A stretch of 64,000 nt of DNA from an uncultured Pseudomonadales bacterium (GCA_964429015.1 CAYSAM010000002.1:25158-89157); one strand, 5' to 3'; positions 11,372 to 56,503 are shown, counted from the stretch's first letter. Numbers and translations are program-made. The notes: a model not told the origin generated them from the letters alone.

Positions 11372-11412
11372 CGTCATTGCGAGGCGCGACTTTAGGTTGG
11401 CCGCGGCAATCC
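11372..11412. repeat. Dispersed imperfect-palindrome element (TCGTCATTGCGAG...CCGCGGCAATC), copy 1
   Basis: ccgtcattgcgaggcgcgactttaggttggccgcggcaatcc: ATTGCGAG and CGGCAAT arms are reverse complements around a GC-rich core. Copies at about 43168-43205, 48564-48592, 53313-53350 and 56430-56503. Confidence 0.75.
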
Positions 11413-11435
11413 AGTCAAATTGATACAATATAACT

Positions 11436-11699
11436 ATGAAATCCAAACCAGCCAAAAAACCCATTCACCAAAAAGTTGCCGCCCAAACGCTAACCCTCAT
11501 TACTACTTCCTTAGGTTTAGTTGCGGCTCTAGCTTGGAACGAAGCCATCACTGAGTACGTCAATATCTACATCAAACCTCGCTTTGCAAACGGCTCGGGA
11601 GTTATCTCTCTTTTTGTTTATGCTTTAGCCATCACCATTTTTACCGTCTTTCTTTCTTACCAGCTCAACAAAATCACCAAAAAAATCACCAAGCAATGA
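11436..11699 (+). CDS. Small membrane protein (2 TM), hypothetical
   Basis: 87 aa, two hydrophobic helices. Its stop overlaps the next start (ATGA). Confidence 0.35.
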   Translation: MKSKPAKKPIHQKVAAQTLTLITTSLGLVAALAWNEAITEYVNIYIKPRFANGSGVISLFVYALAITIFTVFLSYQLNKITKKITKQ

Positions 11700-12103
11700 A
11701 AATAGATGGTCTTCTTAAGGAACTGAGAGCACTAAAAATTCCAAGGGATGAAATGGCGATAACATCATCTGGCCCAATTGGAATAAGAGGTTTAAGAGAA
11801 ATAGGCGACTTAGATATCATCGTTACATCAAAAATCTGGGACAAGCTTTCAAGAAAATACAAAATAACCAAAGAGGATAATTTTGAATCAATTTTTATAG
11901 GTAATATTCAAGTTCTAGGAAATGGCTCCTGGTTCACAGATATTCAATATGGTTCTGTGGAAGATGATATTAAAAATGCTGACATTATCGATAATAATAG
12001 ATATGTTAAGCTAGAAAAGATCTTAATGATCAAAAAAATGAAAGACCGTCAAAAAGACATCGATGACGTGAAACTAATAGAAAGACATCTTAACAAGTCT
12101 TAA
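11696..12103 (+). CDS. Minimal nucleotidyltransferase-fold protein
   Basis: SSGPIGIRGLREIGDLDII fits the GS-x(9-13)-DxD motif of Pol-beta-superfamily minimal NTases. Confidence 0.35.
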   Translation: MKIDGLLKELRALKIPRDEMAITSSGPIGIRGLREIGDLDIIVTSKIWDKLSRKYKITKEDNFESIFIGNIQVLGNGSWFTDIQYGSVEDDIKNADIIDNNRYVKLEKILMIKKMKDRQKDIDDVKLIERHLNKS

Positions 12104-13176
12104 CTCAACTCTACTTTCTTTGCCGACTTAAACATATCCGCATCCCCCTCGTCTGCCGTAGTCACTATAACCTGCCTTCCTTCAGTCACCCTCAAAACCT
12201 CTTGCTTATGAATATTATCTAGTTCTGAAAAAATATCATCTAGTAGTAATAAAGCTTTTTTCTTTCCTCTTTCCTCCAAAAAATAAATCTCACCCATCTT
12301 CATCGCCAAAACCGCCATTCTTTGCTCACCCCTAGAACCAAAAGTACTTAGGTTTCTCTCATTCTCTGTCACCACCAAGTCGTCCTTATGCGGACCCACC
12401 AAGGTGTATCCTACTGCCACCTCAGCGTCTTTATACTGGGCTAGTCTACTTTCACTTATAGTACTCATTTCGTAATTAAGTTTCACCTTTTTAAACAGCT
12501 CACTTTTTCCAAACAAATCATTAATATACTGCACCAGTTCTTGTCTTTTTACCGTTACTATATTTCCGTGTTTAATTAGTAGTCCGTCCCAAAAAGTCAA
12601 AGCATATCTATTTGCTGACCCATCTCTTATTGCGTCGAGTATCTTATTTCTCCTACGTAAAGCCTGTTCATAAGTCGTAATACTGTTTTCATAAATTTTA
12701 TCAGCTTGGCTTAGTAATCTATCCATAAATTTTCTACGTACGTCCGCCGAACCACTCACAAGTTCCACGTCTTCCGGTCGAAAAATCACAATTGGCAACA
12801 GTCCCAACAAATCTTTTCTTCTGCGAGAAACTCCATCAATTAAATACTTTCTTTTATTTACCACCTTGCCCATCACCACTCCGCCATTCACCATCACTTC
12901 AATTTCTTGAGTATCCCCATCCTCCCAGACGATATCTGCTTTTACTTTTCCTAGCTCACACCCAAATCTCACCATCTCTTCTGTGCGCCTGGCTCTAAAG
13001 CTCTCACCCAAACTAGTGAGGTAAACAGCTTCCAATATATTTGTTTTCCCTTTGGCATTTTCTCCAAAAATCACATTAACTCCAGGTTCAAAATCTAGTT
13101 CCTTTTCTTCGTAATTTCTAAAATCAGTTAAGCTAAGTTTCCTTATTCCCACGCCTAAAGTATACAATAGAACCAA
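12100..13176 (-). CDS. recF: DNA replication and repair protein RecF
   Basis: Walker A FGENAKGKTNILEAVYL. C-terminal signature/Walker B region LLLLDDIFSELD. 358 aa. Confidence 0.85.
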   Translation of the reverse strand: MVLLYTLGVGIRKLSLTDFRNYEEKELDFEPGVNVIFGENAKGKTNILEAVYLTSLGESFRARRTEEMVRFGCELGKVKADIVWEDGDTQEIEVMVNGGVVMGKVVNKRKYLIDGVSRRRKDLLGLLPIVIFRPEDVELVSGSADVRRKFMDRLLSQADKIYENSITTYEQALRRRNKILDAIRDGSANRYALTFWDGLLIKHGNIVTVKRQELVQYINDLFGKSELFKKVKLNYEMSTISESRLAQYKDAEVAVGYTLVGPHKDDLVVTENERNLSTFGSRGEQRMAVLAMKMGEIYFLEERGKKKALLLLDDIFSELDNIHKQEVLRVTEGRQVIVTTADEGDADMFKSAKKVELS

Positions 13177-14031
13177 ATGAACTGGTTTTTTCTTACCATT
13201 CTAAGTGCTATTTTTGGATCACTTACTAGAATACTTCAAAAAACTCTTTTAAAAGATAAAGATAGCGATCCTTTTGCGTTTGGATTTGTTTTTCAATTAC
13301 TAGTATCTTTTCTTTTTCTTTGTTACACATTGGTTACAAACACTTTAGAATTCCCCAACCTTTCTGGTTTACTTTTAAACATTTTTATAATGGCTATTTT
13401 TTATAGCCTAGGAAACATACTCACTTTTAAAGCATTTAGTCTTGCCGAAGCCTCAGAAGTATCAATCATACTTTCATCAAGCACTATTTGGTCAGTAATT
13501 ACCGCCACCATTCTTTTAAACGAAAAAGTCACCACCAAAAATATCATCGGAATAGTATCGATAGTTTTAGGAATTGTTGTCATAAACTACACAAAAAAAT
13601 CATGGATGGTCAACAAAGGGCACCTCTATGCTTTGGCGGGAGCAATGCTGTTTGGATTTGCTTTCACCAACGATGCTTTTATTGTCAATCGTTACAGCAG
13701 TATTTCTTCATACATGATTATTGCTTTCTCTTTGCCAGCAATTCTGTCGCTAGCTCTAAATCCCAAATCCTTCAAAAAAATTAGTACCTATACAAAAAGT
13801 TCTGTTCTTCCCAGCTTACTTCTGTGTTCTATTGTTTATGCTTTATCGGCAATTACTATTTTTTCCGCCTACAAAATTGGAGGCAAAGCTAGTGTAATCT
13901 CCCCTATTCAGCAAAGCAGCACCATACTTACTGTTATTTTTAGTTACTTTTTACTAAAAGAAAAGGATAAACTACCAAACAAAATAATTGGAACCATCCT
14001 TACCTTTATCGGAGTCTTATTGCTAATATAA
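13177..14031 (+). CDS. EamA/DMT-family transporter
   Basis: 10 predicted TM helices in two duplicated halves. 284 aa. Confidence 0.65.
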   Translation: MNWFFLTILSAIFGSLTRILQKTLLKDKDSDPFAFGFVFQLLVSFLFLCYTLVTNTLEFPNLSGLLLNIFIMAIFYSLGNILTFKAFSLAEASEVSIILSSSTIWSVITATILLNEKVTTKNIIGIVSIVLGIVVINYTKKSWMVNKGHLYALAGAMLFGFAFTNDAFIVNRYSSISSYMIIAFSLPAILSLALNPKSFKKISTYTKSSVLPSLLLCSIVYALSAITIFSAYKIGGKASVISPIQQSSTILTVIFSYFLLKEKDKLPNKIIGTILTFIGVLLLI

Positions 14032-14583
14032 CTCTGGGTTCTTAAAAGGAATGAGTGCCAATATAATCGCTGGTTCATAATAAGTAGATCTAGTCAACAC
14101 ATCATCTGTTAATATTCCAACCGCTCCTGTAGACTGTTTTGAATTTGTTCTTCCAAAAACAATGTCGTCTGCTTCACCCAACTCTTTTCCTTGTTTTACC
14201 AGCTCTGCAACTTTAGTTGGTAAAAAGAAAGATCCGCTTCTCCCTTTACCCACTTTGCCCTCTTTAGAAATAACCACCATCCAAGCAAATGCCTCCAATT
14301 CACCACCAACTTCCTCCAAACCACCTTCAATACCCACCCAATAATCAGCCTCAATCATTTTAAAAACATTTTTTGCTCTATTTGTCGCTCCCAACAGTGT
14401 TTCTTTTTCACTCATAGGTTGATCAGATACTTCAGAAGGTGCCGATAACCCCTCAAATTCAAAAACTTCTTTGGGAAACATTTTCTCAAAACCTATTTTC
14501 GTCGTATTTATTTTAACCGGGTTATTTGAAGCAATTACAACTTTTTTCATACTCCAATTATTACATATTAGCCAAAAAACCAA
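14023..14583 (-). CDS. Non-canonical purine NTP phosphatase (YjjX/ITPase-XTPase-like)
   Basis: MKKVVIASNNPVKINTTKIGFEKMFP... resembles the YjjX N-terminus (VxxATxNPxK). ~186 aa. Confidence 0.55.
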   Translation of the reverse strand: MVFWLICNNWSMKKVVIASNNPVKINTTKIGFEKMFPKEVFEFEGLSAPSEVSDQPMSEKETLLGATNRAKNVFKMIEADYWVGIEGGLEEVGGELEAFAWMVVISKEGKVGKGRSGSFFLPTKVAELVKQGKELGEADDIVFGRTNSKQSTGAVGILTDDVLTRSTYYEPAIILALIPFKNPELY

Positions 14584-14626
14584 AAACTATTTAAGGAGAG
14601 TTTGTGTTTGTTTGTGCGATATTTTG

Positions 14627-14668
14627 CAAGGTGCGTAAAGCAGGCCCCCTGCAAAGTCAGGGGTTTAC
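14627..14668. promoter_or_regulatory. Nested perfect palindrome in the fpg-yjjX intergenic region (GTGCGTAAA...CCCCTG-CAAAGT-CAGGGG...TTTACGCAC)
   Basis: 9-bp outer arms and 6-bp inner arms read directly. Function unknown (operator or RNA hairpin). Confidence 0.3.
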
Positions 14669-14775
14669 GCACCGCAAACAAGAAAATTTTCTCGCAGGGA
14701 AAATCTTTCGGTCGCCAACAAATAAACACAAACGATCATATTAAATACTTTTTGCGATACTTCGAATCAAAAAAA

Positions 14776-19523: not shown

Positions 19524-19537
19524 ATTTATTTATCTAA

Positions 19538-20871: not shown

Positions 20872-20873
20872 AG

Positions 20874-20947
20874 TAGCTGGGGCGAGATTCGAACTCGCGC
20901 TCTTCGGTTTATGAATCCGATGCTTTAACCAACTAAGCTACCCAGCC
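20874..20947 (-). tRNA. tRNA-Met (anticodon CAT; elongator-type, alternatively a lysidine tRNA-Ile2)
   Basis: Manual fold of the reverse complement: acceptor GGCTGGG/CCCAGCT (G1-U72), D-arm GCTT/AAGC, anticodon loop TTCATAA (CAT), T-arm GCGAG-TTCGAAT-CTCGC, discriminator A, no encoded CCA. The 31-39 A-A mismatch was noted. Confidence 0.7.
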
Positions 20948-22772: not shown

Positions 22773-22846
22773 TTTTAGGATGTGGGTCGACCTGGATTCG
22801 AACCAGGGACATCGAAGGTATAAGCTTCGCGCTCTAACCAGCTGAG
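22773..22846 (-). tRNA. tRNA-Ile (anticodon TAT / UAU)
   Basis: Manual fold: GGGTCGA-TA-GCTC-AGCTGGTTA-GAGC-G-CGAAG-CTTATAC-CTTCG-ATGTC-CCTGG-TTCGAAT-CCAGG-TCGACCC-A. All stems are Watson-Crick. The loop CTTATAC gives U33, anticodon UAU, A37. Confidence 0.65.
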
Positions 22847-22922
22847 CTATCGACCCAATAAGATATATTCTACCGCAACACACGTAATCTGACATCTGTG
22901 ATCTGTGATCTGTGATCCAATC

Positions 22923-29388: not shown

Positions 29389-31791
29389 ATGCTGTTAATA
29401 AAGACTGCACCAAAGACAAAGTATATAATTACTCCACACATGGAACCGAAACGCAAAAAGTTTTTTAAAGAGTTAGAAAAAAGAATAGCCACCAAGTCCT
29501 GGAAAAAATTAAACAGCAAATCTTTACTGTTTCTTTTAGCTGGTATTTTTCTGATCTGGCTCTTCTTTCTCCTCAAGGACGTTCCTAGTCCAGCCAAACT
29601 CACCAAAACTCCAGCACCACAAAGTACAAAAATACTTGATCGCAACCAAAACCTCCTGTACGAGGTCTACTCAGATTATCGACGTACACCTGTAAACTTT
29701 CAAAACATCTCTCAAGATGTCAAAAACGCCACCATTGCAATTGAAGATAAAAACTTTTACCGCCATCACGGGCTAGATACTTTAGCTATTATCCGTGCCG
29801 CCTTTAACACTCTAAGAGGTAAAAGACTAGAGGGTGGTTCCACACTCACTCAGCAACTCGTCAAGAATTCTTTATTATCCGACACCAGAAGAACTCTTAC
29901 TCGCAAAATTAAGGAGGCCATACTTTCCGTCGCCACTGAATTTACCTACACCAAAAATGAAATTCTAGAGCTATATCTCAATCACGCACCATACGGCGGC
30001 ACCGTCTACGGCATCGAGACCGCCTCCCAAACTTACTTTGGCAAGTCAGCAAAAGACTTAAATCTTGCCGAGTCAGCGCTTCTTGCTGGATTACCACAAT
30101 CTCCAACCAGATACTCACCATTTGGTGCCAAACCAGAATTAGCCATCAACCGACAACATGAAGTTTTAAGACGTATGTACGAAGACGGCTATATAAACAA
30201 AGATCAATACGATTCCGCCAAAAACACCAAACTTAATTTTTCCAAAAAAAATATAACCATCAACGCTCCTCATTTTTCTCTCATGGTTAGAGATCAACTT
30301 GTCCAAAAATACGGCGAAGACTTAGTCAACCTTGGTGGACTAGTGGTTACAACAACTCTCGATCTAGATCTCCAAAATTATTTTCAAGCTTCGCTCTCAG
30401 CTGAACTAAAAAAAATTGCCAAACTAAAAATTAGCAATGGTGCAGCACTAGTCACCAAGCCAAATACTGGAGAAATTATTTCTTTAATTGGTTCCAAAGA
30501 TTACTATGACAACGATATTGATGGACAAGTAAACATCACTACGGCATTGCGCCAACCAGGCAGTTCTATAAAACCACTAAACTACGCCACAGGTCTTTTA
30601 CTTGGCTGGCCAACTAGCCTTGTTTATTTAGATGTTCCTACTTGCTTCAATGTTCTTGGTCAAAAATCTTACTGTCCCAAAAACTACGATAATTCTTTCA
30701 GGGGACCAGTTTCTATGCGTCAATCTTTGGCAAATTCTCTAAATATTCCCGCTGTCAAACAACTCGCACTCAATAGTATGGACTCTTTTATCGCAACCGC
30801 ATCAGCCATGGGGATCTCTACCTGGACAGACTCAAGCAAATACGGACTTTCTCTCACTCTAGGTGGCGGTGAAGTTACCATGTTCGATCTTGCAAAAGCA
30901 TTTAGTACTTTTGCCAATCAAGGGGTGACTGTTCCTCTTGTTTCTGTTCTTAAAGTCCAAACATACGACGGTATAACTCTAGAAGAGTATGATGCTGAAA
31001 AAACCGCCAATCTCGTCTCTGTTCTTCCAGAAGATTGGGCAACTTTTTGGTCAAGTTCCAGCCATTCTGCCTCCCCTTCTGCCGAACCTGTCACCACCCT
31101 ACCCAAAGAAGTCACTTTCATTATTTCCGACATTCTCGCAGACAACGGCGCTCGCTCCGCAGCCTTTGGCACCAACAGTTTATTAGTAATACCCAATCAT
31201 ACCGTTTCTGTAAAAACAGGCACCACTAACGACCTCAAAGATAACTGGACCATAGGCTACACACCAGATTTCCTCGCTGCCACCTGGGTGGGTAACAACG
31301 ACAATACTTCCATGAGCTACGTTGCCTCTGGTGTCACCGGCGCATCTCCAATCTGGAACAGTATCATGAAAAAACTCCTCAAAGAAATCAAAGACAAACC
31401 ATTATCAAAACCAGAAAATGTTACCAATTTTCAAGTCTGCAACTCCACAGGGTTACTTGCTCAACAAGAAAACCAGTGCGAGTCTCACTCAGAATATTTT
31501 ATAAAAGAAATTCTACCACTTGGTCAATCAGGTATTCCCGTTCGCAAACAAATTTGGGTCAATCGTGCTGACAAGTCTCCAATACAAGAAAACGACACCA
31601 CAACAATTGACAGGGATCTTGAAGAACATACAGTTCTATCAGATCCATTCATCAAAGAATTTTGTTTAGATTGCAACTACCCATTAAACGAAAAGGGTAG
31701 TATTCAGTGGCCCCAAACAAACGTTAACATGTCTACTTTCAAGGCCAACTCAAAAAACTACTTAAATCTAAATGTCCAAAACAGCCCTTAA
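29389..31791 (+). CDS. Class A penicillin-binding protein (PBP1A; transglycosylase + transpeptidase)
   Basis: GT51 motifs EDKNFYRHHGLD and RKIKEAILS. Transpeptidase motifs SSIKP (SxxK) and KTGTTN (KTG). Confidence 0.85.
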   Translation: MLLIKTAPKTKYIITPHMEPKRKKFFKELEKRIATKSWKKLNSKSLLFLLAGIFLIWLFFLLKDVPSPAKLTKTPAPQSTKILDRNQNLLYEVYSDYRRTPVNFQNISQDVKNATIAIEDKNFYRHHGLDTLAIIRAAFNTLRGKRLEGGSTLTQQLVKNSLLSDTRRTLTRKIKEAILSVATEFTYTKNEILELYLNHAPYGGTVYGIETASQTYFGKSAKDLNLAESALLAGLPQSPTRYSPFGAKPELAINRQHEVLRRMYEDGYINKDQYDSAKNTKLNFSKKNITINAPHFSLMVRDQLVQKYGEDLVNLGGLVVTTTLDLDLQNYFQASLSAELKKIAKLKISNGAALVTKPNTGEIISLIGSKDYYDNDIDGQVNITTALRQPGSSIKPLNYATGLLLGWPTSLVYLDVPTCFNVLGQKSYCPKNYDNSFRGPVSMRQSLANSLNIPAVKQLALNSMDSFIATASAMGISTWTDSSKYGLSLTLGGGEVTMFDLAKAFSTFANQGVTVPLVSVLKVQTYDGITLEEYDAEKTANLVSVLPEDWATFWSSSSHSASPSAEPVTTLPKEVTFIISDILADNGARSAAFGTNSLLVIPNHTVSVKTGTTNDLKDNWTIGYTPDFLAATWVGNNDNTSMSYVASGVTGASPIWNSIMKKLLKEIKDKPLSKPENVTNFQVCNSTGLLAQQENQCESHSEYFIKEILPLGQSGIPVRKQIWVNRADKSPIQENDTTTIDRDLEEHTVLSDPFIKEFCLDCNYPLNEKGSIQWPQTNVNMSTFKANSKNYLNLNVQNSP

Positions 31792-33060: not shown

Positions 33061-35097
33061 ATGTTTAAAGACAAAAAAAGAATCACTAAACTATTTTTAT
33101 ATATCGGTTTACCTTTATACCGTCTATTTCTTGTTGCCATTATTGCCACTTTTTACACCTTAAGAAGACTAAAACATCTAGTTCAATTAATTAAACTACC
33201 CAAAGTTAATTTTTCCCCTCCCAAAACCAAAACAATCTCTCGATTACTTTTTCTTATCTGCCTCCTCCAAATCACGTTTTTAATTTATCACTTCTTCTCA
33301 ACTCTCCCCAACCCAAAACTGCTAAACCACTTTCCGGATAAACTATCTACTAAGATTCTAGATCGAAACGGTAATTTGCTATATCAAATTTATAAAGATG
33401 AAAATAGAACTGAAATCAAAATTGGCAACTTACCCACACACGTTAAACTAGCCTTCCTAGCTGCCGAAGATAAAGACTTTTATAAACATCACGGTTTTTC
33501 TCTTACGGGGCTAATGAGAGCTTTTTATAAAAACTTAGTCAAAGATCACGTCGAAGGTGGCTCAACTATTACTCAGCAACTTGTAAAAAACACTTTACTC
33601 ACCAACGAAAAAACTTTTGTTAGAAAAATCAAGGAACTTGTACTCTCATTAGAGGTAGAAGCTATGTACACCAAAGATAAAATCTTGGAAATCTATCTTA
33701 ATCAGGTTGGTTTTGGCGGCCCCGCCTACGGTATCCAAGAAGCCGCCCAACAATACTTCAACATCGACGCTAAAGATTTATCTATCTCTCAAGCCGCTTT
33801 TCTGGCAGGGCTTACACAAGCACCCACCAAATACTCACCTTTTGGGGAAAATATTCAACTTGGCATAGAAAGACAAAAAATTGTTTTACAACAAATGCAA
33901 AAAAATCATTTTATTACTGATGAAGAATATCAAAATTCACTACACGAAACCATTCTCTTCAGATCTGCCAAAAACGACATTATTGCTCCCCACTTTGTTA
34001 TGTATGTCCGTAGTCAACTTATAAATCAGCTAGGTGAAAATATCGTCAATCAAGGCGGACTAACCGTATACACAACCCTAGATCAAAACATCCAAAACGA
34101 AGCACAAAAAATAGTCTCCCAGGAAATTGAAAAACTAAAGGGATTAAACGTTACAAATGGCTCTGCTTTAATCACTAATCCACAAACAGGTGAAATATTA
34201 GCTATGGTAGGCTCCAAAGATTACTTTAACCTCAACGAAAATGGCCAAGTAAATCTCACTACCTCTTTGCGCCAACCAGGCAGTTCCATCAAACCTCTAA
34301 ATTACGCCCTTGCCTTCGAAAAAGGCAAAAAACCAACCGATACCGTAGAGGATAAGCCACTTTCAATTATCTACCCAAACAGAACAACTTGGACACCAAA
34401 AAACTACGATAACAAATTTCATGGAACAGTAACTCTTAAACAAGCCTTAGCAAACTCTTACAATATTCCCTCAGTTCTCCTTCTAAAAGAAAACGGTATA
34501 GCTGAATTTGCCAATTTTGCCCATAAAATGGGTATCAACTCTTGGTCTGACACTAGCCGCTACGGACTATCCATGAGCCTTGGCAGTCTCGAGGTCAAAA
34601 TGACCGAATTAGCCACTGCATATTCATCTTTTGCTAACAATGGAGTCGTTACGCCTCTAACATCAATTTCCAAAGTAGTATCTAGTGAACAAGGGCAAAT
34701 ATACTTTCCTAAGTGCCAAACAGTTGAAAATCAAGAAAGCAACAAGTCAGTTCTAGCCAACGAAGACAACTGTCTATCGCGTCGTGTAATAACTAATCAA
34801 ACTGCAAAACATATCACCGAAATACTTAGTGACAATATTGCCCGCTCCAGTGCCTTCGGTTCCAATTCCGTGCTGAATATCAAAGGTCACAAAGTCGCTG
34901 TAAAAACTGGCACTAGCAATGATCTCAAAGATAACTGGGCAATCGGCTATAACGAAAATTATTTAGTATCCACCTGGGTGGGAAACAATAATAGCCAACC
35001 CATGTCACACATTGCTTCAGGAGTTACGGGTGCTTCTCCAATTTGGTCCAAAATTTTCAACAACCTTCTTATAAAACCCCTTGCCTCAAGTAACTAA
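33061..35097 (+). CDS. Class A penicillin-binding protein, second paralog
   Basis: EDKDFYKHHGF, SSIKP and KTGTSN; same architecture as 29389..31791. Confidence 0.85.
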   Translation: MFKDKKRITKLFLYIGLPLYRLFLVAIIATFYTLRRLKHLVQLIKLPKVNFSPPKTKTISRLLFLICLLQITFLIYHFFSTLPNPKLLNHFPDKLSTKILDRNGNLLYQIYKDENRTEIKIGNLPTHVKLAFLAAEDKDFYKHHGFSLTGLMRAFYKNLVKDHVEGGSTITQQLVKNTLLTNEKTFVRKIKELVLSLEVEAMYTKDKILEIYLNQVGFGGPAYGIQEAAQQYFNIDAKDLSISQAAFLAGLTQAPTKYSPFGENIQLGIERQKIVLQQMQKNHFITDEEYQNSLHETILFRSAKNDIIAPHFVMYVRSQLINQLGENIVNQGGLTVYTTLDQNIQNEAQKIVSQEIEKLKGLNVTNGSALITNPQTGEILAMVGSKDYFNLNENGQVNLTTSLRQPGSSIKPLNYALAFEKGKKPTDTVEDKPLSIIYPNRTTWTPKNYDNKFHGTVTLKQALANSYNIPSVLLLKENGIAEFANFAHKMGINSWSDTSRYGLSMSLGSLEVKMTELATAYSSFANNGVVTPLTSISKVVSSEQGQIYFPKCQTVENQESNKSVLANEDNCLSRRVITNQTAKHITEILSDNIARSSAFGSNSVLNIKGHKVAVKTGTSNDLKDNWAIGYNENYLVSTWVGNNNSQPMSHIASGVTGASPIWSKIFNNLLIKPLASSN

Positions 35098-42672: not shown

Positions 42673-43113
42673 TTATGCTTGCTCTTCAACGGGTATATAC
42701 ATATAGTGGTTTTTTGAAAACACAACAGGTTCCCCTTTGTCATCCCTAAGTAATTTCAACGCTACCCCATCCAGAGTCAACACGCCGTTAAATGTCAAAC
42801 TCCTCAGTAGGGTTGAACCTTTCGGCCAAGACGATAAGATTGCTTTCTCAACACTCGAATCCAAAATAGACTTAAAATCCCTTATGTTAAATTCTGTCTT
42901 CATTTCTTGACCATGAATTGTAACATCAGCACCAATTTTTTGATCGTATTCAAAAATTCTTTCACCGTTTGTAAAAAATAACCCACCAGATTCGTCTGAC
43001 TTAACTTTTTTTACCATTATATTTCCAGGTAAATGTACTTCAGCTTGTCCATCTTTTTTTGTATGCGCACCCCACGGACCCGGAGTAACTCCATCAAAAT
43101 CAATTATAGCCAT
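42673..43113 (-). CDS. Hypothetical protein
   Basis: 146 aa with no recognisable motif. It sits between rpiB and a HAD hydrolase. Confidence 0.3.
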   Translation of the reverse strand: MAIIDFDGVTPGPWGAHTKKDGQAEVHLPGNIMVKKVKSDESGGLFFTNGERIFEYDQKIGADVTIHGQEMKTEFNIRDFKSILDSSVEKAILSSWPKGSTLLRSLTFNGVLTLDGVALKLLRDDKGEPVVFSKNHYMYIPVEEQA

Positions 43114-43286
43114 ATGTCAGTTTCCTCTCTCTCTCTCTTTGTCAACACTTTTCTTGAAACCAAGTATCGTCATTGCGAGGCGCGACTTTAGGTCGGCCGC
43201 GATGCTTCTCAGCAGAGCTAAATGTCGAAATTAGTTTTTGTTGAAGACAAAAATAACTTTCGACCAATCTATGCAAATAAACACTC

Positions 43287-43976
43287 CTATTTTTTCAACA
43301 ACTCCATTACCTTTTCATAAGCCTCATTATCACTCACCACCAACCAACCTTCTTCTTTTGCGTGTTTCAATAACTCTTCTGTAGGATTTATACAGATTGG
43401 GTTTTGAACTTTTTCCAACATTCCGATATCGTTTTCCGAGTCCCCAAAAGCAAAATTATTACCACTGCTATATTCAGACAACAAACTCTCCACCACATGT
43501 TTACCATCAGCCAAAGAATTCACAATACTCCCAGTAAAAACCCCATCAACTACTTCAAAATTAGTACACAAATACCCATCCAATCCAAACATTTCCTTTA
43601 CCGCTTCTGCAAACATCTGCGAGTTCGTGGTTACTATATAAATATCATGAGTCTGCTTTAATACCGGAACCAAATCAACAAAATATTTATAAAAATTATC
43701 CTTTGTATCCTCAAAAAATTTCTTCACCAAACCAGAAACTTCGTCAAAATTTTTCCCTTTCAAGGCTTCTCCAAATATCTTAAGTAAATTATTTGCAGTA
43801 ATTGAATACTCCTGGAGTTTACTATTATATTTTTCCAGTTCTGCTTCAATTCTCGGCCAAGTTTCAGCCGTAAATATACCTTTTTCAATTAAGAATTTTG
43901 CTGCGGAAAAAAAAGAATGTTGGTTGTATATTGTTTTATCAATATCAAATAGAGCAATCGACTTTTTTGTACTCAT
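43287..43976 (-). CDS. HAD-superfamily hydrolase (phosphoserine-phosphatase-like subfamily IB)
   Basis: Motif I LFDIDKTIY (DxDxT). Motif IV GDSENDIGM. Confidence 0.65.
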   Translation of the reverse strand: MSTKKSIALFDIDKTIYNQHSFFSAAKFLIEKGIFTAETWPRIEAELEKYNSKLQEYSITANNLLKIFGEALKGKNFDEVSGLVKKFFEDTKDNFYKYFVDLVPVLKQTHDIYIVTTNSQMFAEAVKEMFGLDGYLCTNFEVVDGVFTGSIVNSLADGKHVVESLLSEYSSGNNFAFGDSENDIGMLEKVQNPICINPTEELLKHAKEEGWLVVSDNEAYEKVMELLKK

Positions 43977-44711: not shown

Positions 44712-45854
44712 ATGACAGATCTAAACAAGCTTAAAATTGCCACCATAGCAACTTCATCTCCATTTTGGATAGCAATAATTGTCCTATATCTAAACTCAAG
44801 AGGAATATCTCTGTCAGACGTTTTCAAACTAATAAGTTTTTACCAAATATCAGTGGTTGCTCTAGAGTATCCCACAGGAGTGATTGGAGACCACTTTTCC
44901 CACAAAACATCTGTAACTTTAGGATATCTGTTTTCATCTATCGGGATGCTACTGGCAACATTTCAACTTAGTATTCTTTTTTATTACTTAATTATGGTAA
45001 TTATCGCTCTAGGTGTATCACTTGTTTCGGGAAGCAACACCGCTTTGTTACACAAACTTTCAGAGGACTTTAAAAAAGACTCCGCCTCCCTAAAAAGTAC
45101 AACTATGGCATGGTCACTTATAGCTCTGTCCGTTGGAGGGTTAATCGGAAAATATAGCCTTGTAGCACCAATTTACCTTACCAGCGCTGCTTTCATGGTC
45201 GGTTTTATAACAATGACCTCAATCAACCAATCAGACCACAACAAAAAATCTGGAAATGTTTTTAGCAAAGCAAAAGAAGGAATAATTCACATAAAGAATA
45301 ACAACACCCTAATATCCATTTTAATTCTCAACGCACTAGTATCTGGCATTTTTCTTAGCACAAAGTGGTTCTACAACCCCTTCTTTGAAACTCTAGGAAT
45401 AAATATTTCTTGGTGGGGAATACTTATTAGTCTTGCATCACTTTTAAGTATTGCTGGTGTATTTTTATACAAAAAATTCACAAGCAATAAAATCATAGAG
45501 TATTACGTCTTTCTTATTATTCTATTTGGGCTTACATCCCTACTAAATAGTCGATTTTCAATCGTATCGCTTCCATCACTTATGCTTGCCCATCTTGTAG
45601 GTTCGGGGTACATACAAACATTTTTTGAAGTTAACATCAATAGTCACTTATCAGACTCAACTAGAGCAAGCGTCTTATCTTTCGGCAGTTTACTTATCAG
45701 ATTAACATCCTCAATTTACATTTACGCAACAGGTCTAATCATTGCCAATTACAACCTGTCACATCTATTTATTTTTACAGCAGCAATACTAACAATAATC
45801 GGTTTACCGTTTGTCTTCAAATTAAACTCCAAATTTGATTCTTTGAGTTCTTGA
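44712..45854 (+). CDS. MFS-type transporter
   Basis: 12 predicted TM helices in two 6-TM halves. The C-terminal codons are supplied by the GAGTTCTT tandem repeat. Confidence 0.65.
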   Translation: MTDLNKLKIATIATSSPFWIAIIVLYLNSRGISLSDVFKLISFYQISVVALEYPTGVIGDHFSHKTSVTLGYLFSSIGMLLATFQLSILFYYLIMVIIALGVSLVSGSNTALLHKLSEDFKKDSASLKSTTMAWSLIALSVGGLIGKYSLVAPIYLTSAAFMVGFITMTSINQSDHNKKSGNVFSKAKEGIIHIKNNNTLISILILNALVSGIFLSTKWFYNPFFETLGINISWWGILISLASLLSIAGVFLYKKFTSNKIIEYYVFLIILFGLTSLLNSRFSIVSLPSLMLAHLVGSGYIQTFFEVNINSHLSDSTRASVLSFGSLLIRLTSSIYIYATGLIIANYNLSHLFIFTAAILTIIGLPFVFKLNSKFDSLSS

Positions 45855-45883
45855 GTTCTTGAGTTCTTGAGTTCTTGAGTTCT
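45835..45883. repeat. Tandem 8-nt microrepeat (GAGTTCTT) x about 6, overlapping the MFS stop codon
   Basis: ttctttgagttcttgagttcttgagttcttgagttcttgagttctt read directly. Related arrays at 40793-40860, 47464-47497, 53234-53266 and 55025-55060. Confidence 0.8.
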
Positions 45884-45887
45884 TATA

Positions 45888-48261: not shown

Positions 48262-48338
48262 TTTTTTTCACGGTTCCAAAGGTAGGGGTTTGATTTATCA
48301 AACCCAAGCTACAATCATAACCATTAATTTTATAAATA

Positions 48339-48758
48339 TTAATTTTCATTATTCATCACTTTTAATAACGCTCTATAAGCCAAGGTTGCACACTTCATTC
48401 TACCTGCATTTATCTCTCCCCCCATCATTTCTACAATTCCCTCTTCTCCAATTTTTTCAACGTCCACAAAAGTCATTCCAATCACTTTCTCCGAAAGCAT
48501 ACTAGCTGCCGCTGTCGATATTGCACACCCCACCCCTCGCCACCTCACCTCCTTGATCACAACGTCGTCATTGCGAGCAGCGCGCGGCAATCCATCTCCT
48601 CTACCATCTACCATCGACGATCTTTTAAGCTTAATTTGCACTTGCACAACATCCCCACAACTAGAGTTAGACTCGTTTATAGTTAAGTCAGCGTCCTCCA
48701 TCTCCCCAAAATTTCTAGGGTTCTTGTAGTGATCAATTATTTCATCCTTGTAATCCAT
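48339..48758 (-). CDS. sufU: SufU/IscU-type Fe-S scaffold protein with a ~20-aa in-frame insertion derived from the dispersed palindromic element
   Basis: HYKNPRNFG, CGDVVQVQIKL and GVGCAISTAAASM are scaffold motifs. Between them, KRSSMVDGRGDGLPRAARNDDV is encoded by the cgtcgtcattgcgagcagcgcgcggcaatc + ccatctaccatc repeat at 48564-48624. Confidence 0.7.
   Translation of the reverse strand: MDYKDEIIDHYKNPRNFGEMEDADLTINESNSSCGDVVQVQIKLKRSSMVDGRGDGLPRAARNDDVVIKEVRWRGVGCAISTAAASMLSEKVIGMTFVDVEKIGEEGIVEMMGGEINAGRMKCATLAYRALLKVMNNEN
48564..48624. repeat. Palindromic element copy 3 fused to a 7-nt microrepeat, located inside the sufU reading frame
   Basis: cgtcgtcattgcgagcagcgcgcggcaatccatctcctctaccatctaccatcgacgatct read directly. 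Confidence 0.8.
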
Positions 48759-48802
48759 ATCTATGTAAACACCTTTGGTACTTCTTTTAATTTTTCTACC
48801 AA

Positions 48803-49999: not shown

Positions 50000-50013
50000 A
50001 ATCTTATTCTAAC

Positions 50014-50553: not shown

Positions 50554-50556
50554 AGC

Positions 50557-51030
50557 CTATTCTACCCCCAAAAAACCTTTAATTATTAAGTTTTCCGCCT
50601 CATTTCTGTTAATACCTCTCGTTTCCAAGTAAAAAAGCTGCTCTTCATCTATTCTCCCCACACTAGCAGAATGACTCGCTTTTACCTCATTGTTTTCAAT
50701 CTCTAGTTCCGGCTCAGCTACCGCCATACTTTTATCATCAAGTAATAATAGTTTCATCGATAAAAAACTATCACTACCTTTAGCTCCCTCTGCAATTTTT
50801 ACCAAGCCCTTTATTTTTACCCTAGCTCCACCGCGCACCACACCTTTAACATCTACCCTGCATTTTGTTTTGCCCACTTTATGCGCCGAGAGCAAATTTA
50901 TTTCGTAATCTCCCTCCTCATTTGCTTCTACAAATCCTAAAAGTTCTTTCTCTTGTCCCTTTTTATCCACACTAACTTCAAAGTTATATATTCCTGGTTT
51001 ATTAATTCTAAAAGTTTCTTTATTATTCAT
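50557..51030 (-). CDS. sufD: Short SufD-like protein (C-terminal SufB/D beta-helix region only)
   Basis: C-terminal EEQLFYLETRGINRNEAENLIIKGF parallels the SufB tail [25 protein letters not shown]. Only 157 aa. Confidence 0.55.
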   Translation of the reverse strand: MNNKETFRINKPGIYNFEVSVDKKGQEKELLGFVEANEEGDYEINLLSAHKVGKTKCRVDVKGVVRGGARVKIKGLVKIAEGAKGSDSFLSMKLLLLDDKSMAVAEPELEIENNEVKASHSASVGRIDEEQLFYLETRGINRNEAENLIIKGFLGVE

Positions 51031-51075
51031 ATGTTTTTATCTGTAACCTACGATCTATCATTTACTATCTAATTT

Positions 51076-52506
51076 CTATCCCACACTCCCTTCCATCTCC
51101 ATGTTTACTAATCTATTCATTTCAATAGCATACTCAAATGGCACCTCTTTCATTACCGGCTCCAAAAATCCATTCACAATCATTCCCTCAGCATCGTGCT
51201 CCGAAAGTCCCCGCGACATCAGGTAAAACAATTGCTCTTCAGACACCCTACTAACTACCGCTTCATGTTCTAGAACTGATCTATTTTCCATAATTTTATT
51301 AGTAGGGTAAGTGTCAGATCGCGAAAGCTCATCCAAAATAAGCGCATCACAAACTACTTTAGAACGCGAATTTATCGCTCCCTTAGCAATGTGTACCAGA
51401 CCTCTATAAGTAGACCTTCCGCCACCCTTACTAATCGACTTAGATAAAATCTGCGAAGTTGTTTCGGGTGCCAAGTGAATCATTTTGGCTCCCGTGTCTT
51501 GATGTTGCCCCGCTCCTGCCCAAGCAATAGAGAGAATTTCACCTTTAGCTTTTCTTCCTACCAAAAGACAGGCAGGATACTTCATGGTAAGTTTGCTTCC
51601 CAAGTTTCCATCTATCCAGCGCATACTTCCTTCTTCTTCTACACGAGCTCTTTTTGTCACCAAGTTATAAACATTTTTATACCAGTTCTGAACCGTGGTG
51701 TACTGCACACTAGCACCTTTCTTTACTATTATTTCTACCACCGCAGCATGAAGTGACCCCGAAGAATAAGCCGGAGCGCTACAACCTTCAATATAATGCA
51801 GTTTGCTTCCCTCATCCGCAATAATCAAAGTTCTTTCAAACTGACCAGCATTTTCACTATTAATTCTAAAATATGTTTGCAAAGGAAGACCTACGTCAAC
51901 ACCCTTAGGAACATAAATAAAAGATCCACCAGACCAAGCTGCACTATTAAGCGCCGCCAGTTTATTGTCCCCAATAGGTATTACACTTCCAAAGTATTTT
52001 TTTACTAACTCTGGATACTGTTTTAAACCCTCATCCATTCCCAAAAACACCACTCCTTTTTTGGCCAAGTTGGCTTTTAGAGATCCGTAAATTACTTCAG
52101 AATCATACTGGCTTTTTACTCCTGCGAGAGCTTCTCTCTCAGCCTGGGGAACTCCAATTTTTTCAAAAGTCGCTTTTACCTCTGCGGGTACATCATCCCA
52201 AGTTTTTCCAGCGTGATCTAGTGGCTTTAAGTAATAAAAAATATTCTGAAAATCAATCGCCGACATATCTCCGCCCCAAGTAGGCATCGGTTTTTCAAAA
52301 AAGATTTTCAAAGCTTTAAGACGAAGTTCCAACATCCATTCTGGTTCATTTTTCATTGCACTTATCTCTCTAATTCTGGCCTCATCCACACCCTTAGTAG
52401 AGCGATATGCATACTTAAAATCATCAGTGTGACCAAGAGAATAAGAGTCACCAATCCCTCCAATGTTATTTACTTCCTCTATTTTCTTTTTAGCAAATCT
52501 ACTCAT
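51076..52506 (-). CDS. sufB: Fe-S cluster assembly protein SufB
   Basis: 476 aa with the conserved SufB C-terminal half (…[15 protein letters not shown]…[12 protein letters not shown]…). Confidence 0.9.
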
Positions 52507-53275
52507 ATTTTTTATATCCAGTTTTACCCAAACTTTCTATTAACTCGGCTCCACCCTCATCAACCACCAAGCCCTTCTTTAAAACAACTACCTTATCCAC
52601 ATTCACCAAATTCAACATTTTTTGGTAATGAGTAATAAGTATCACAGTCATCCCTGTTTCTTTGGACTGCTTATTTATTTCTTCAGCTACAAGGTTCAAG
52701 GCATCAAGGTCCAAGCCACTGTCTGTTTCGTCTAGTATTGCAAGTTTTGGTCGCAAAACTCTCATCTGCAAAATCTCTATCTTCTTTTTCTCACCACCGC
52801 TAAAACCTTCGTTTATTCCACGGGTTAACAGATCATCACTTACTCTTAGTTCTTTTGCGATTTCTTCTACTTGGCGTTTTACATCAATGGCTTTTACCAC
52901 ACCACCCTTTGCTCTCAAGGAAGCTATCAAAACCTCTTTTACTGTTACTCCAGGTACAGAAACAGGATACTGAAAAGCCATAAAAATTCCCTCTTTAGCT
53001 CGTTCATCTGGGGTCATCTCGTTTATTTTCTTACCCATCCACAAAATCTCTCCTTCTGTTATTTCGTAAGCCGGGTTTCCCATCAAAGTGTTAGACAAAG
53101 AAGATTTGCCAGAACCATTTGGTCCCATCAAAGCCACTACTTTTCCAGTTTCTATTTCTATATTCACACCCCTAAGAACTTCTTTTCCTTCTACCCTTAC
53201 CTTCAAATTCTTAATCAAAAGTAATTCCTTATCTTGGGTTCTTGATTCCTTGATTCCTTGAGTTCTATTCGTCAT
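52499..53275 (-). CDS. sufC: Fe-S cluster assembly ATPase SufC
   Basis: Walker [14 protein letters not shown] signature [12 protein letters not shown]. Walker [13 protein letters not shown]-loop ILITHYQ. The start is placed at M16, because upstream codons are encoded by microrepeat and palindromic-element sequence; the alternative start is 53320. Confidence 0.85.
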
Positions 53276-53360
53276 TTTGAATTTTTGATTTTTTATATTT
53301 TGAATTTTTTCTGTCGTCATTGCGAGAAGTGTACTCGCGACGCGGCAATCTATACAAATC

Positions 53361-53747
53361 TTATTTAATAAGGTCCTCCAAAGTATATTTCTCCAACAAT
53401 TTATTAATATCTCCAGTAAGTCTACTCATAAAATCCTGTTGCCCGCACTCTCCCTCTACTGGGCAACCACCACAACAAACAGGTTCCACTTCACCCTCAA
53501 TAGCCTCCAAAGCCTCTTTTACCTGAATCTCTTTTGGCTCGTAGTTTAGAGCAAATCCGCCACCCTTACCTTCTTTAGAGTTCAAAATTCCAGCCTCAAC
53601 CAGGTCAATTGCAATCTTAGCCATAAAAGCTCTTGGCATCCCAAGCTCAGACAGGTCCTTTAGCGACACACGACCACCTCGGCCCTTTTCAGCCAATATC
53701 GAAAGCAAAGCTAGTCCGTAATCTGCCCTTTTGGTAAGTGTAAACAT
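53361..53747 (-). CDS. Rrf2-family transcriptional regulator (IscR/SufR-like, Cys-ligand type)
   Basis: N-terminal wHTH MFTLTKRADYGLALLSILA... and C-terminal Cys cluster PVCCGGCPVEGEC. It is the first gene of the SUF operon. Confidence 0.8.
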   Translation of the reverse strand: MFTLTKRADYGLALLSILAEKGRGGRVSLKDLSELGMPRAFMAKIAIDLVEAGILNSKEGKGGGFALNYEPKEIQVKEALEAIEGEVEPVCCGGCPVEGECGQQDFMSRLTGDINKLLEKYTLEDLIK

Positions 53748-53790
53748 ATACTTGGACTATTATACTCCAAGTACATAAAAATGAAAATAT

Positions 53791-54420
53791 CTAAAACAGC
53801 CCCATCTGCATCTCCGCAGGCTTCTCCTCAACCACTTCTGTAGGGTAACCAAAATCAACTACTATCTCTCGGAACTCATTCCACCTATCCTTAAACTTCA
53901 GTATTCCATTTTTTCTACCGTAGTCATACACCTTCGTTGTCACCTCCACATCCACCTCGCAATATTTTTTAAGATTAGCTAAACTCTCAGAGTCGCCAAG
54001 ATTCCACCACTTTACAGCGTCCAATCCTCCTGCAATTTTTCCTGCACCAATCGTTTCTTTAGCTACACTGTCTAGTTTTACTCTGTGTCCAAAAGATTTT
54101 CTAATCTCCTCCAAAATATCGAAGTGTTTCAATTTAGTAAAGTCACCTTTTGTATACACCCCATTCATCGCTGGATTATCAAACCCAAAAGAGTTATACC
54201 CAATTATTCTGTCCGCCTCCTCAAACCAACTCCACATACTATCAAAGTCACCTTCCCAAAAACTTTTCATTTCACCAGATAATTCATTACCATTTTCATC
54301 TACTTCTCGTCTATAAGCTGACACTATCGATATTCCCAAATCTGCCGGATTGTTTGTACTTATCTCATCAAAAATTTTCTTAGTTTCTATGTCGTAAATC
54401 ACTTCAACTCTTTTTTTCAT
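53791..54420 (-). CDS. RNase H-like 3'-5' exonuclease (DEDD / PolB-exonuclease-like, YprB-type)
   Basis: Motif I YDIETK (DxE). Motif II GYNSFGFD. Motif III YCEVDVEVT. Confidence 0.5.
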   Translation of the reverse strand: MKKRVEVIYDIETKKIFDEISTNNPADLGISIVSAYRREVDENGNELSGEMKSFWEGDFDSMWSWFEEADRIIGYNSFGFDNPAMNGVYTKGDFTKLKHFDILEEIRKSFGHRVKLDSVAKETIGAGKIAGGLDAVKWWNLGDSESLANLKKYCEVDVEVTTKVYDYGRKNGILKFKDRWNEFREIVVDFGYPTEVVEEKPAEMQMGLF

Positions 54421-54497
54421 AGTTCCCCCATTAAACCACTACCTTCCAAAAATGTAAAACTATACTCCACGATCCACGATCTACAAACTACGATCTT

Positions 54498-55007
54498 TTA
54501 TCTCCCGTTCTCCCAAATTCTCATTCTTTTCTTAACCCAAACCCCAAAACCCATTACAGCTATTCCCGCCAACACTCCATAAAGAATATTTTCCCAAACA
54601 CCAGTTTCTGGTAAGGTTGTAACCGCCGATGCCGTCGCTGTTGGGGTTGGGGTTGGCGTGGCTGCAGATGCATTAAATCGTATTGTAAAGGTCAAAATCT
54701 GACTTCCCGAATTAACAGTTATCAAATTATCACCAGTATTCAAAGAACTAGGAGTAAAATTCCAAACCCCACTTGTTGTCGCTGCAATCACCGCACTAGA
54801 TGTTGCGTTTACTTTTACACTTACCATTGCAGCGGGAGTAGCTGTTCCTTCAAGCTGTGGCACTGATCCGGTATAACTGACCAAAGTGTAATCTGCCCCT
54901 ATTGTTGACAAAGTTCCAATCTTTGTCAAAGTAAGGTCATAAGCAAAAACGGGAAAAGCAAACAAAAATGCTCCCAGTATTGTCCATAAAATATTTTTTT
55001 TCCACAT
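54498..55007 (-). CDS. Sortase-anchored surface protein (LPETG cell-wall anchor)
   Basis: Signal peptide MWKKNILWTILGAFLFAFPVFA. C-terminus TTLPETG + hydrophobic helix + KKRMR. Thr/Pro-rich linker ATPTPTPTA. Confidence 0.65.
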   Translation of the reverse strand: MWKKNILWTILGAFLFAFPVFAYDLTLTKIGTLSTIGADYTLVSYTGSVPQLEGTATPAAMVSVKVNATSSAVIAATTSGVWNFTPSSLNTGDNLITVNSGSQILTFTIRFNASAATPTPTPTATASAVTTLPETGVWENILYGVLAGIAVMGFGVWVKKRMRIWENGR

Positions 55008-55068
55008 TTTGATTTTTTGATTTTTTCTTGATTTCTCGAGTTCTTGATTTTTCGAGTTCTATATATAT

Positions 55069-56406
55069 TTATAACTCAATTTCTGTTTCTAAGTTAGGAA
55101 GAATTACTTCTACTCCATCAAATTCATTTAGTATTTTCTCCTTCAGTACCAATCTGGGTATTTCCTCACCATGTGTCAAGGCAACTTTCTTTACACCTTT
55201 TATTTTTGAAAACCAGTTTATAAGCTGGCTCTGATCAGCATGTGAACTCATTGTTTTAATTTCTTTAATTTGTGCCCTAACCTCTATATGGTTCCCCCAA
55301 ATAACTACATTTTCTTTTCCGTCTTTTATTTCCCTTCCCAGCGTTCCCTCAGCCTGAAATCCCACAAAAACAATTGTATTTTTCGGATCATCTAAATAGT
55401 TAATAGCGTGATGAATTATTCTTCCCCCAGTCATCATTCCACTTCCAGCTACAATAACTTTTGTTCCTGGATAGTTCTTTATTTGCTTACTTTTTTCCAC
55501 ACTGTCGCACACCACTAAACCAGGAAAATCAAAGGGATCGTCACTCCTAACGACATCTTTCAATTTTTTACTAAAAAGTCCAGGATAATCCTTAAAAATC
55601 TCGGTCGCTTTTATTGCCATTGGCGAGTCCAAAAAAACTGGAGTGTCATTACTTACTTTTCCTTGTTTTTTGAGTTGATCAAAAACAAATAAAACCTCTT
55701 GCGATCTTTGCAAAGAAAAAGTCGGAATCATTACTGTTCCACCCACTCTTTCTGCTTCGACAACAATTTCCGCAAAATCTTCGATCTCTTCTCTTTTTCC
55801 GTGAACTTCATCACCGTAAGTAGACTCCAAAACAGCAAAATCGGCACCATCAACAAACTCTGTTGGCTTTATCAAAGGCTCTGGGGTATTCCCTAAGTCA
55901 CCACTAAATACCAGTTTCTTTTTTGTCGCAATTTCTTCCACTAAAATACTCGTCGACCCCAAAATGTGTCCCGCATCAAACATTGTTAACTTAAAATCAC
56001 CAACAGCAAAAGGTACGTGATAGTCTACTAAAACTACTTTTTTCAAAAATTTTACAACCGCATCTTCGTTATACATTGTTTCCGTTGCGTCTTCTTTTGC
56101 AATTTTTGCACTATCCATCAAAACAATCTCCGCCAAAGCCTTTGTTGGCTCATTCATAAAAACAGGTCCGTCAAAACCAAACTCAAGCAACATTGGCAAA
56201 CGGCCACAGTGATCTAGATGTGCGTGTGTCAAAACAATCGCATTTAGCTTTTCAAAATCAATTGCGGGCTTGGCAAAGTTTAACTTGTCATCATCCTTTA
56301 TTCCCTGAAACATGCCGCAGTCCACCATTAAACCTGTGTTTTTACCTTGCAAAAAATAACATGATCCGGTCACCATACCAGCAGCACCCAAAAACTTTAA
56401 CTTCAT
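55069..56406 (-). CDS. Beta-CASP-family metallo-beta-lactamase ribonuclease (RNase J/CPSF-like)
   Basis: HAHLDHCGRLP (HxHxDH), a MBL beta-CASP domain with downstream conserved His and Asp. 445 aa. Confidence 0.7.
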   Translation of the reverse strand: MKLKFLGAAGMVTGSCYFLQGKNTGLMVDCGMFQGIKDDDKLNFAKPAIDFEKLNAIVLTHAHLDHCGRLPMLLEFGFDGPVFMNEPTKALAEIVLMDSAKIAKEDATETMYNEDAVVKFLKKVVLVDYHVPFAVGDFKLTMFDAGHILGSTSILVEEIATKKKLVFSGDLGNTPEPLIKPTEFVDGADFAVLESTYGDEVHGKREEIEDFAEIVVEAERVGGTVMIPTFSLQRSQEVLFVFDQLKKQGKVSNDTPVFLDSPMAIKATEIFKDYPGLFSKKLKDVVRSDDPFDFPGLVVCDSVEKSKQIKNYPGTKVIVAGSGMMTGGRIIHHAINYLDDPKNTIVFVGFQAEGTLGREIKDGKENVVIWGNHIEVRAQIKEIKTMSSHADQSQLINWFSKIKGVKKVALTHGEEIPRLVLKEKILNEFDGVEVILPNLETEIEL

Positions 56407-56429
56407 ATATATTCAGTCTACCAGAACCA

Positions 56430-56503
56430 GTCGTCGTTGCGAGGAACAACCCGCCCGCAACACTGAAGAGTACTTCTGCGAGCAGGAGTGACGTGGCAAT
56501 CTA
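56430..56503. repeat. Palindromic element, long variant (copy 5)
   Basis: tcgtcgttgcgaggaacaacccgcccgcaacactgaagagtacttctgcgagcaggagtgacgtggcaatc, with the same TCGTCnTTGCGAG...GGCAATC termini. Confidence 0.7.

Follow-up and report, generated by a model that had tools for sequence, protein, structure and literature searches.

The five GC-rich palindromes dispersed through a 64,000-nucleotide stretch of DNA from an uncultured Pseudomonadales bacterium (GCA_964429015.1 CAYSAM010000002.1:25158-89157; this whole 64-kb stretch is termed the window below) very probably belong to the superfamily of CGTC-tagged repetitive extragenic palindromes (REPs), and more precisely represent a GAG-type variant of the Ssn-related hairpin motifs (SRMs). 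The element is a known kind of repeat, in a new variant and in a host of the candidate phyla radiation (CPR), and not a new kind of system; its SufU homologues place the window with the Collierbacteria-like Microgenomates/Patescibacteria of that radiation. The GAG-type combines a bulged stem with a free apical hairpin, is captured by neither of the published descriptions of such repeats and appears to be an undescribed family. Two kinds of evidence carry this reading. First, the elements have a conserved anatomy, with covariation in both the basal stem and the apical hairpin and a prevalence of dimers with their tags outward. Second, GAG-type elements are linked to a family of GIY-YIG nuclease genes across metagenomes, and the window and its relatives display a turnover of copies and an in-frame insertion into sufU.

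All five copies lie on the + strand of the window, four of them intact or nearly so and one without its 3' end; their flanking genes were named from Pfam annotation and the map of open reading frames (ORFs). Copy 1 (11372-11414, +) is intact and runs from a CGTC tag through ATTGC, GAG, the interior GCGCGACTTTAGGTTGGC, CGCG, GCAAT and C to a CAG tail. It sits in the spacer that separates nnrD (10486-11352, -) from a divergent DUF5654 gene (11436-11699, +), that is, upstream of nnrD rather than after it, as had been stated in the original prediction that drew attention to these repeats. Copy 2 (43168-43201, +), between an ORF of 146 aa (42673-43113, -) and a HAD hydrolase gene (43287-43976, -), is truncated and lacks the 3' box CGCGGCAATC with its GCAATC arm. 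Copy 3 (48566-48595, +) is the short form CGTCATTGCGAGCAGCGCGCGGCAATCCAT and lies within the sufU ORF, antisense to it, while copy 4 (53315-53353, +), with both ends intact, occupies the Rrf2-sufC spacer. Copy 5 (56432-56504, +) is a long variant, GTCGTTGCGAG ... CGTGGCAATC, with an interior of 48 nt, and lies in the divergent spacer between a beta-CASP RNase gene (55069-56406, -) and a Zn-ribbon gene (56523-57278, +). Because its interior holds a second TGCGAG, it is probably a pair of decayed units in tandem.

Read along the + strand, the copies share the order (C)GTC, ATTGC, GAG, a variable interior, CG-Y-G, GCAAT and C, followed by CAG, CAT or TAT. This corresponds to an unpaired (C)GTC tag, a 5-bp basal stem (ATTGC/GCAAT) that opens with an A-T and then a T-A pair, a purine-rich internal loop (GAG/CGYG) and a variable apical hairpin. 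The stem is preceded by the CGTC tag in all five copies (GTC likewise in 5/5); the 3' box is found in four, and the C 3' of the palindrome in 4/5, the truncated copy 2 being the exception. The tail is CCA in copies 1 and 3 and CTA in copies 4 and 5, and is absent from copy 2. Copies 1 and 2 are identical at 33 of 34 nt and have the same subfamily interior (repeat family D16). The 11-mer GTCRTTGCGAG has 5 exact matches in the window; with at most one mismatch there are 6 matches against 0.83 expected, a number reached in none of 100 shuffles; the finding is far from chance. A relaxed two-box scan of the window yielded no further convincing copies, the degenerate candidates at 4820, 54780 and 59313 being set aside as they look like chance.

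These results bear out the prediction of a GC-rich repeat family at five loci, by the exact 11-mer and the shared layout alike, and, since the window has a G+C content of 38%, the copies are indeed local GC islands. The claim that their arms are reverse complements stands for the 5 bp of ATTGC and GCAAT and fails beyond them, GAG and CGG not being complementary. Similarly, the predicted hairpin is right insofar as the basal stem pairs, but the folding energy of single copies, computed for both strands, is no better than that of shuffled sequences (z -2.5 to +2.0), and stability alone is thus no argument.

The motif is not confined to the window, a confinement that the original prediction had named as telling against a genuine family. 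An exact-pattern scan with GTCATTGCGAG-N(4-34)-CGNRGCAATC in viral contigs and species-representative genomes recovered at least 210 copies at no fewer than 120 viral loci, and at least 120 genome loci in at least 14 phyla, Patescibacteria included. The hosts of the genome loci comprise Alpha-, Beta- and Gammaproteobacteria, Desulfobacterota, Chloroflexota, Planctomycetota, Bacteroidota, Ignavibacteria, Cyanobacteria, Bacillota, Nitrospirota, Zixibacteria, Armatimonadota, Campylobacterota, Riflebacteria and Patescibacteria. The two boxes remain constant from copy to copy and the interior differs in length and sequence, being usually a hairpin, with an apical hairpin interior of 4-48 nt when the window and this wide sample are taken together. 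Counted from the closing G-C towards the interior, four or more successive pairs are present in 35% of 293 distinct interiors as against 2% of shuffled ones, with 25 different outer arms among the paired interiors. Within the commonest form, GTCATTGCGAGCGAAGCGAAGCAATC, lies GCGAAGC, known as a DNA mini-hairpin of exceptional stability. The flanks are pyrimidine-rich, with Y at both -1 and +1: in the wide sample GTC is preceded by T in 61% and by C in 30% of cases, and GCAAT-C is followed by C in 54% and by T in 43%.

Close inverted pairs in the fetched loci are oriented with tags outward in 62 cases and inward in 10; their spacers are mostly 22-26 nt long, with ends that are often complementary (e.g. 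cag...ctg). Tandem arrays of copies also occur besides these inverted pairs, and the window itself holds single copies only, without dimers. Some viral and metagenome contigs display head-to-tail arrays (L062 2670-2856, L017, L036, L247 and L280), with up to 15 copies per contig; where the copies are packed most densely, the spacers measure about 10-12 nt.

The second line of evidence concerns a nuclease. In Neisseria the NTS repeat (CGTCATTCCCGCGMAVGCGGGAATCYRG; NTS/dRS3) is bound and cut by SsnA, a single-domain GIY-YIG protein of 94 aa, which acts on single-stranded DNA (ssDNA) only and on one strand only, and whose cut falls a few nucleotides upstream of the tag; binding depends critically on the C that follows the palindrome and cleavage on the three bases that precede it, and ssn genes are typically bracketed by such repeats with their tags facing outward (Chenal 2025, PMC11893778). 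Using a local profile search, we found five GIY-YIG ORFs among the loci selected by the element. In two of these loci (L192 and L208) ATTGCGAG elements closely flank the gene on both sides, their tags pointing outward, in another (L002) it abuts a canonical NTS, and in a locus of Doudnabacteria, which are also CPR bacteria (L140), a truncated GIY-YIG gene has CGTC-type elements about 500 nt off on each side. The proteins, of 96-102 aa and with PF01541 as their sole domain, share about 50% identity with one another; their invariant Y7, Y18 and E66 are spaced like the catalytic Y6, Y17 and E64 of SsnA.

An independent test started from the protein: 80 metagenome loci were fetched with the GIY-YIG family (~96 aa) as the sole query. 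A tagged hairpin lies at most 350 nt upstream of the gene in 63 of 77 such loci and downstream of it in 63 of 77, and tagged hairpins stand on both sides in 51 of 74. Element density in the protein-selected loci is 5.0/kb near the GIY-YIG gene against 0.58/kb elsewhere, and the elements around the gene prefer the tags-outward orientation. GAG-type elements occur in 63 of the 80 loci and matches to the published SRM in 5, one of which is an exact NTS; the latter five tie the protein family to Ssn. The family itself comprises at least 7,000-8,000 clusters at 90% identity, and its Firmicutes and Aquificae members are about 70% identical, which is consistent with horizontal spread.

On the same 80 loci, a pattern blind to structure (GTC-N5-GAG...CG..-N5-C) gave 278 matches as against 46 in shuffled loci, with the two N5 arms perfectly complementary in 186 of the 278. 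Eleven different 5-bp stems are represented, e.g. ATTGC, ATCCT, ATGCT, ATTCT and ACCCT, all of them with A at position 1 and with T or C at position 2. Since these 11 stem sequences occur with paired arms, the basal stem covaries while the GAG/CGNR loop is kept.

Closer to the window, we compared three relatives (L241, L242 and L243, 47 kb together), adding further sequences for SufU. As predicted, one copy is inside a gene: sufU (NifU_N; 48339-48758, -) hosts copy 3 and, beside it, a 7-nt microrepeat (48592-48623) in the loop that links CGD to GVGCAIS, and the gene's frame on the minus strand reads through the copy, which is translated as ...DGRGDGLPRAARNDDVV... (...GLPRAARND...). L242, whose SufU is 96% identical to that of the window, has the same copy. 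The loop is empty in the relative L327 and in forms of 118-121 aa, and is filled with other CGTC-family elements in L243, L324, L325 and L326. The peptides found there in the relatives are LPRAARND, LPRFARND, WIPGQARND, MDSRLRGND and VRLPHPDGIGVRND, with two in tandem in one protein; the elements, all antisense to sufU, often stand beside microrepeat-encoded KNSKNQ strings. As the relatives hold different elements at this place, with nucleotide junctions that differ by 0-5 codons, the loop is a permissive hot spot that has been hit repeatedly or remodelled, as is known for the Rickettsia palindromic elements (RPEs).

An element like copy 1 is present downstream of sufU in both L242 (821-880) and L241 (10382-10440). 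The Rrf2-sufC spacer holds a ATTGCGAG type in the window, GTCATTCCGGACTTGATCCGGAATC in L241, placed and oriented as in the window, and no element in L243. Occupancy of orthologous sites thus differs among close relatives, which amounts to a turnover of copies, and the near-identity of copies 1 and 2, taken with the recurrence of their variant in L241 and L242, suggests recent spread. Downstream of sufU the window carries, at 48262-48330 and between identical flanks, an unrelated AT-rich stretch of 66 nt with the hairpin GGGTTTGATAAATCAAACCC; compared with the element of L241 and L242, this looks like a cassette-like replacement. The relatives also contain other CGTC families, with ATTCCGGG, ATTCCCGA, ATTTCGAC and ATTCCGGA stems, many of them followed by YATATA and all on the C-rich strand (L243 7540-7564, 10144-10168, 10446-10477, 10546-10570 and 10584-10609; L241 4640-4664).

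In the same spacer, the longest sufC ORF (52499-53320, -) opens at an ATG within copy 4 and encodes 273 aa as against 241 aa in L241, from which difference the true start probably lies further downstream. The N-terminal stretch of this longest ORF includes residues encoded by microrepeats.

The tag strand is the C-rich strand in all 14 tagged elements of the window and L241-L243, and in 76% of viral contigs when counted per locus (p = 5e-7). A general bias of the tag strand with GC skew was dropped, the mixed genome sample giving 43% by the same count per locus. The skew of the lineage is itself unusual: all 4-kb bins of the window fall between -0.21 and -0.41 (mean -0.315), whatever the gene strand, and L241, L242 and L243 show +0.30 to +0.38 in the opposite orientation, far above usual bacterial values.

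The original description of the repeats as REP- or MITE-like mobile hairpins holds in its first half. A REP-like nature is supported by the layout shared with CGTC-tagged REPs, a near-identical variant at several loci of the lineage, the differing site occupancy among relatives and the in-frame insertion in sufU. Strict miniature inverted-repeat transposable elements (MITEs) they are probably not, with terminal inverted repeats of at most 5 bp; no target-site duplication is visible at the sufU or spacer sites, which were compared without a clean empty site of exact boundaries.

Taken together, these features suggest a working model, framed by analogy with NTS and SsnA. When the + strand becomes single-stranded, ATTGC would pair with GCAAT, and the basal stem thus formed would close a purine-rich internal loop (GAG opposite CGYG) and a freely varying apical hairpin, leaving the (C)GTC tag unpaired on the 5' side and a C unpaired on the 3' side. 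A single-domain GIY-YIG nuclease of ~95 aa would bind this ssDNA hairpin, on one strand only, and nick it a few bases upstream of the tag, the 3' C serving for binding and the three pre-stem bases for cutting. The nuclease gene would be bracketed by two repeats with tags outward, and the repeats would multiply in the genome by some copying step. In N. meningitidis the pair of SsnA and repeat restricts the integration of incoming transforming ssDNA (PMC11893778). By extension, a cognate Ssn nuclease may act on the window copies today, and the effect in this host may resemble the Neisseria restriction of incoming ssDNA.

Several points weigh against assigning the window copies to an Ssn-type family. 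No GIY-YIG or Ssn homologue was found in the 64-kb window or in the 47 kb of L241-L243 (best E = 0.7), nor could one be shown for any Collierbacteria genome in database searches of this very large family, where the nearest matches to a low-GC query were from Firmicutes and Aquificae and few of the matches are named. None of the window copies, nor either of the motif's two commonest forms, fits the published SRM pattern, whereas the canonical NTS, used as control, does. Membership of the GIY-YIG family in CDD cd10448 is putative, the family being recognized by PF01541 and residue spacing. The published families CGTC-1 to -4 have continuous stems of 8-9 bp and loops of 4-5 nt (PMC3733652), as opposed to the bulged 5-bp form of the window; the apical stems are poor in copies 3-5, the folding energies being unremarkable as noted above; and none of the CGTC or SRM repeats has a known copying mechanism (PMC3733652, PMC11893778).

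Some of these points bear on an alternative that concerns present activity only and not identity, namely that the copies are inert relics of a past invasion, with no partner protein or function at present. We regard this as a distinct possibility, albeit not the one we would favor. The lack of an ssn gene in the window and its relatives speaks for it, as do the truncation of copy 2, the degeneracy of copy 5 and the weak apical stems; against it stand the near-identity of copies 1 and 2, whose variant recurs in L241 and L242 at another site, and the tag and 3' C that are intact in four copies. With two copies damaged and no ssn gene within the 64 kb, the window copies may be non-autonomous or relic members of the GAG-type family.

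A second alternative places the function at the level of RNA: the element would be transcribed with its flanking genes and act as a terminator, mRNA stabiliser or translational regulator, as has been proposed for the REPs of E. coli. Copies 2 and 4 do lie in spacers of co-directional genes, copy 4 in the leader of sufC, many REPs have been argued to be transcribed (Di Nocera 2013, PMC3733652), and a phage contig (L027) has six copies just upstream of gene starts. However, no T-run follows the hairpin on either strand, copies 1 and 5 are in divergent spacers and copy 3 in coding sequence, and the folding is of ordinary stability. Neither is there a bias in orientation relative to genes in the wide sample (39 against 30, with ORF calls that are crude in GC-rich contigs), and searches of the window with Rfam at gathering thresholds returned only two tRNAs (20874-20947 and 22783-22856, both -), with no match at the copies. 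Moreover, the characterized relatives of the element are bound as ssDNA, and SsnA does not bind the RNA version of the repeat (PMC11893778). We accordingly consider the terminator or mRNA stabiliser of the original prediction, and an RNA-level role more generally, to be unlikely. Still more improbable is a classical REP or REPIN moved by a REP-associated tyrosine transposase (RAYT) or a Y1 (HUH) transposase of the IS200/IS605 type: such elements have the same look of tagged hairpins and inverted doublets, and the compositional bias of the tag strand in the Collierbacteria loci and viral contigs would suit them, but the tag here is CGTC and not GTAG, clustering of 1,974 flanking ORFs gave phage structural genes only and no recurrent transposase-like neighbor, no Y1 transposase with CGTC repeats at its flanks came up in a published survey (PMC3733652), and the gene flanked by the repeats is a GIY-YIG nuclease.

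Apart from the palindromes, microrepeat arrays of 7- or 8-nt units (CATCTAC, ATCTGTA and CGATCTA; TTGAGTTC, CTTGATTC and TTTTGAAT) stand at many gene boundaries of the window, at 455-481, 5658-5722, 6656-6686, 22894-22917, 45843-45884, 48592-48623, 53241-53309, 55007-55060 and 57287-57306. Those at 48592-48623 and 53241-53309 adjoin copies 3 and 4 respectively, in agreement with the original observation that copies sit beside such arrays. Two large neighboring genes on the + strand (29389-31791 and 33061-35097) share segments with about 73% nucleotide identity (repeat families D2, D7 and D13) and are thus paralogues.

With the GAG-type, the partnership of Ssn nuclease and hairpin repeat comes to include viral contigs, CPR bacteria and a form of repeat that escapes the published pattern. 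A literature search with the motif and its translated peptides as strings returned primers only. The finding also matters for annotation, as the repeats yield many spurious or extended ORFs (with ...LPRFARND..., ...SLAMT and VIASEAKQS strings); in the window, one copy truly extends SufU and another probably extends sufC falsely. L192 and L208 provide candidate substrate-enzyme pairs for the ssDNA-cutting toolbox. More speculatively, the GAG-type (ATTGCGAG) might constitute an undescribed major branch of the Ssn repeats in many phyla and phages, recognized through the G/A-rich loop and a 5-bp stem that co-varies with its own GIY-YIG clade, the apical hairpin being left free; we put this forward tentatively and hold it to be rather doubtful. 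If true, the location of the cleavable strand on the C-rich strand in 14 of 14 cases in Collierbacteria-like genomes and the repeated entry of several CGTC families into the SufU loop would suggest that targeting or purging is strand-selective and tied to replication or to the uptake of ssDNA, in organisms thought to depend on taking up DNA.

Comparison with known systems sets the GAG-type apart from some and brings it close to others. An intrinsic terminator would show the run of T that follows none of the window copies, and a MITE would combine terminal inverted repeats with a target-site duplication, of which 5 bp of inverted termini are seen here. With the GTAG REPs and REPINs of E. coli and Pseudomonas and their RAYT, the element shares the short, tagged and dispersed hairpins, the inverted doublets, the single-copy partner gene bracketed by repeats and the recognition of ssDNA; it differs in the tag, in having a GIY-YIG protein in place of an HUH Y1 transposase, and in its taxonomic range, that of the GTAG REPs being narrower. 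The CGTC-tagged REPs are nearer. They have an unpaired CGTC/TGTC (or CCTC) tag, a stem starting with A-T and T-A and a CCA-like tail, form mostly HH (tags-outward) dimers, TT ones being rare, which are often heterodimers with complementary spacer ends, include in-frame intragenic copies, with RPE-4 and RPE-6 of Rickettsia as members, and have no dedicated transposase (Di Nocera 2013, PMC3733652). The GAG-type is like them in tag, AT-first stem, outward dimers with complementary spacer ends, in-frame copies and want of a Y1 partner, resembles them in the tail to the extent that this is CCA in copies 1 and 3, and departs from them in the stem, as discussed above, and in its peptides, those listed for the intragenic CGTC REPs (VIPAKAGI, DSRLRGND, VIAGLDPAI...) being without the ARND and LAMT strings of the GAG-type. 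Finally, with respect to the SRM/Ssn system, the GAG-type has a 5-bp stem followed by the conserved GAG/CGNR loop and an apical hairpin free in sequence and length, and the window copies miss the published pattern and lie in a CPR host without an ssn gene in the window; ssDNA binding and cleavage have been demonstrated for that system, whereas the GAG-type is known here from its sequence. Both, however, are oriented hairpins with GTC just 5' of the stem and C just 3' of it, a stem that begins with A-T and T-A, and a CCAG-type tail; both are dispersed in hundreds of copies; and in both, as the GAG-type loci L192 and L208 and those selected by the protein attest for the repeat family, the repeats bracket a gene for a single-domain GIY-YIG protein of ~95 aa.

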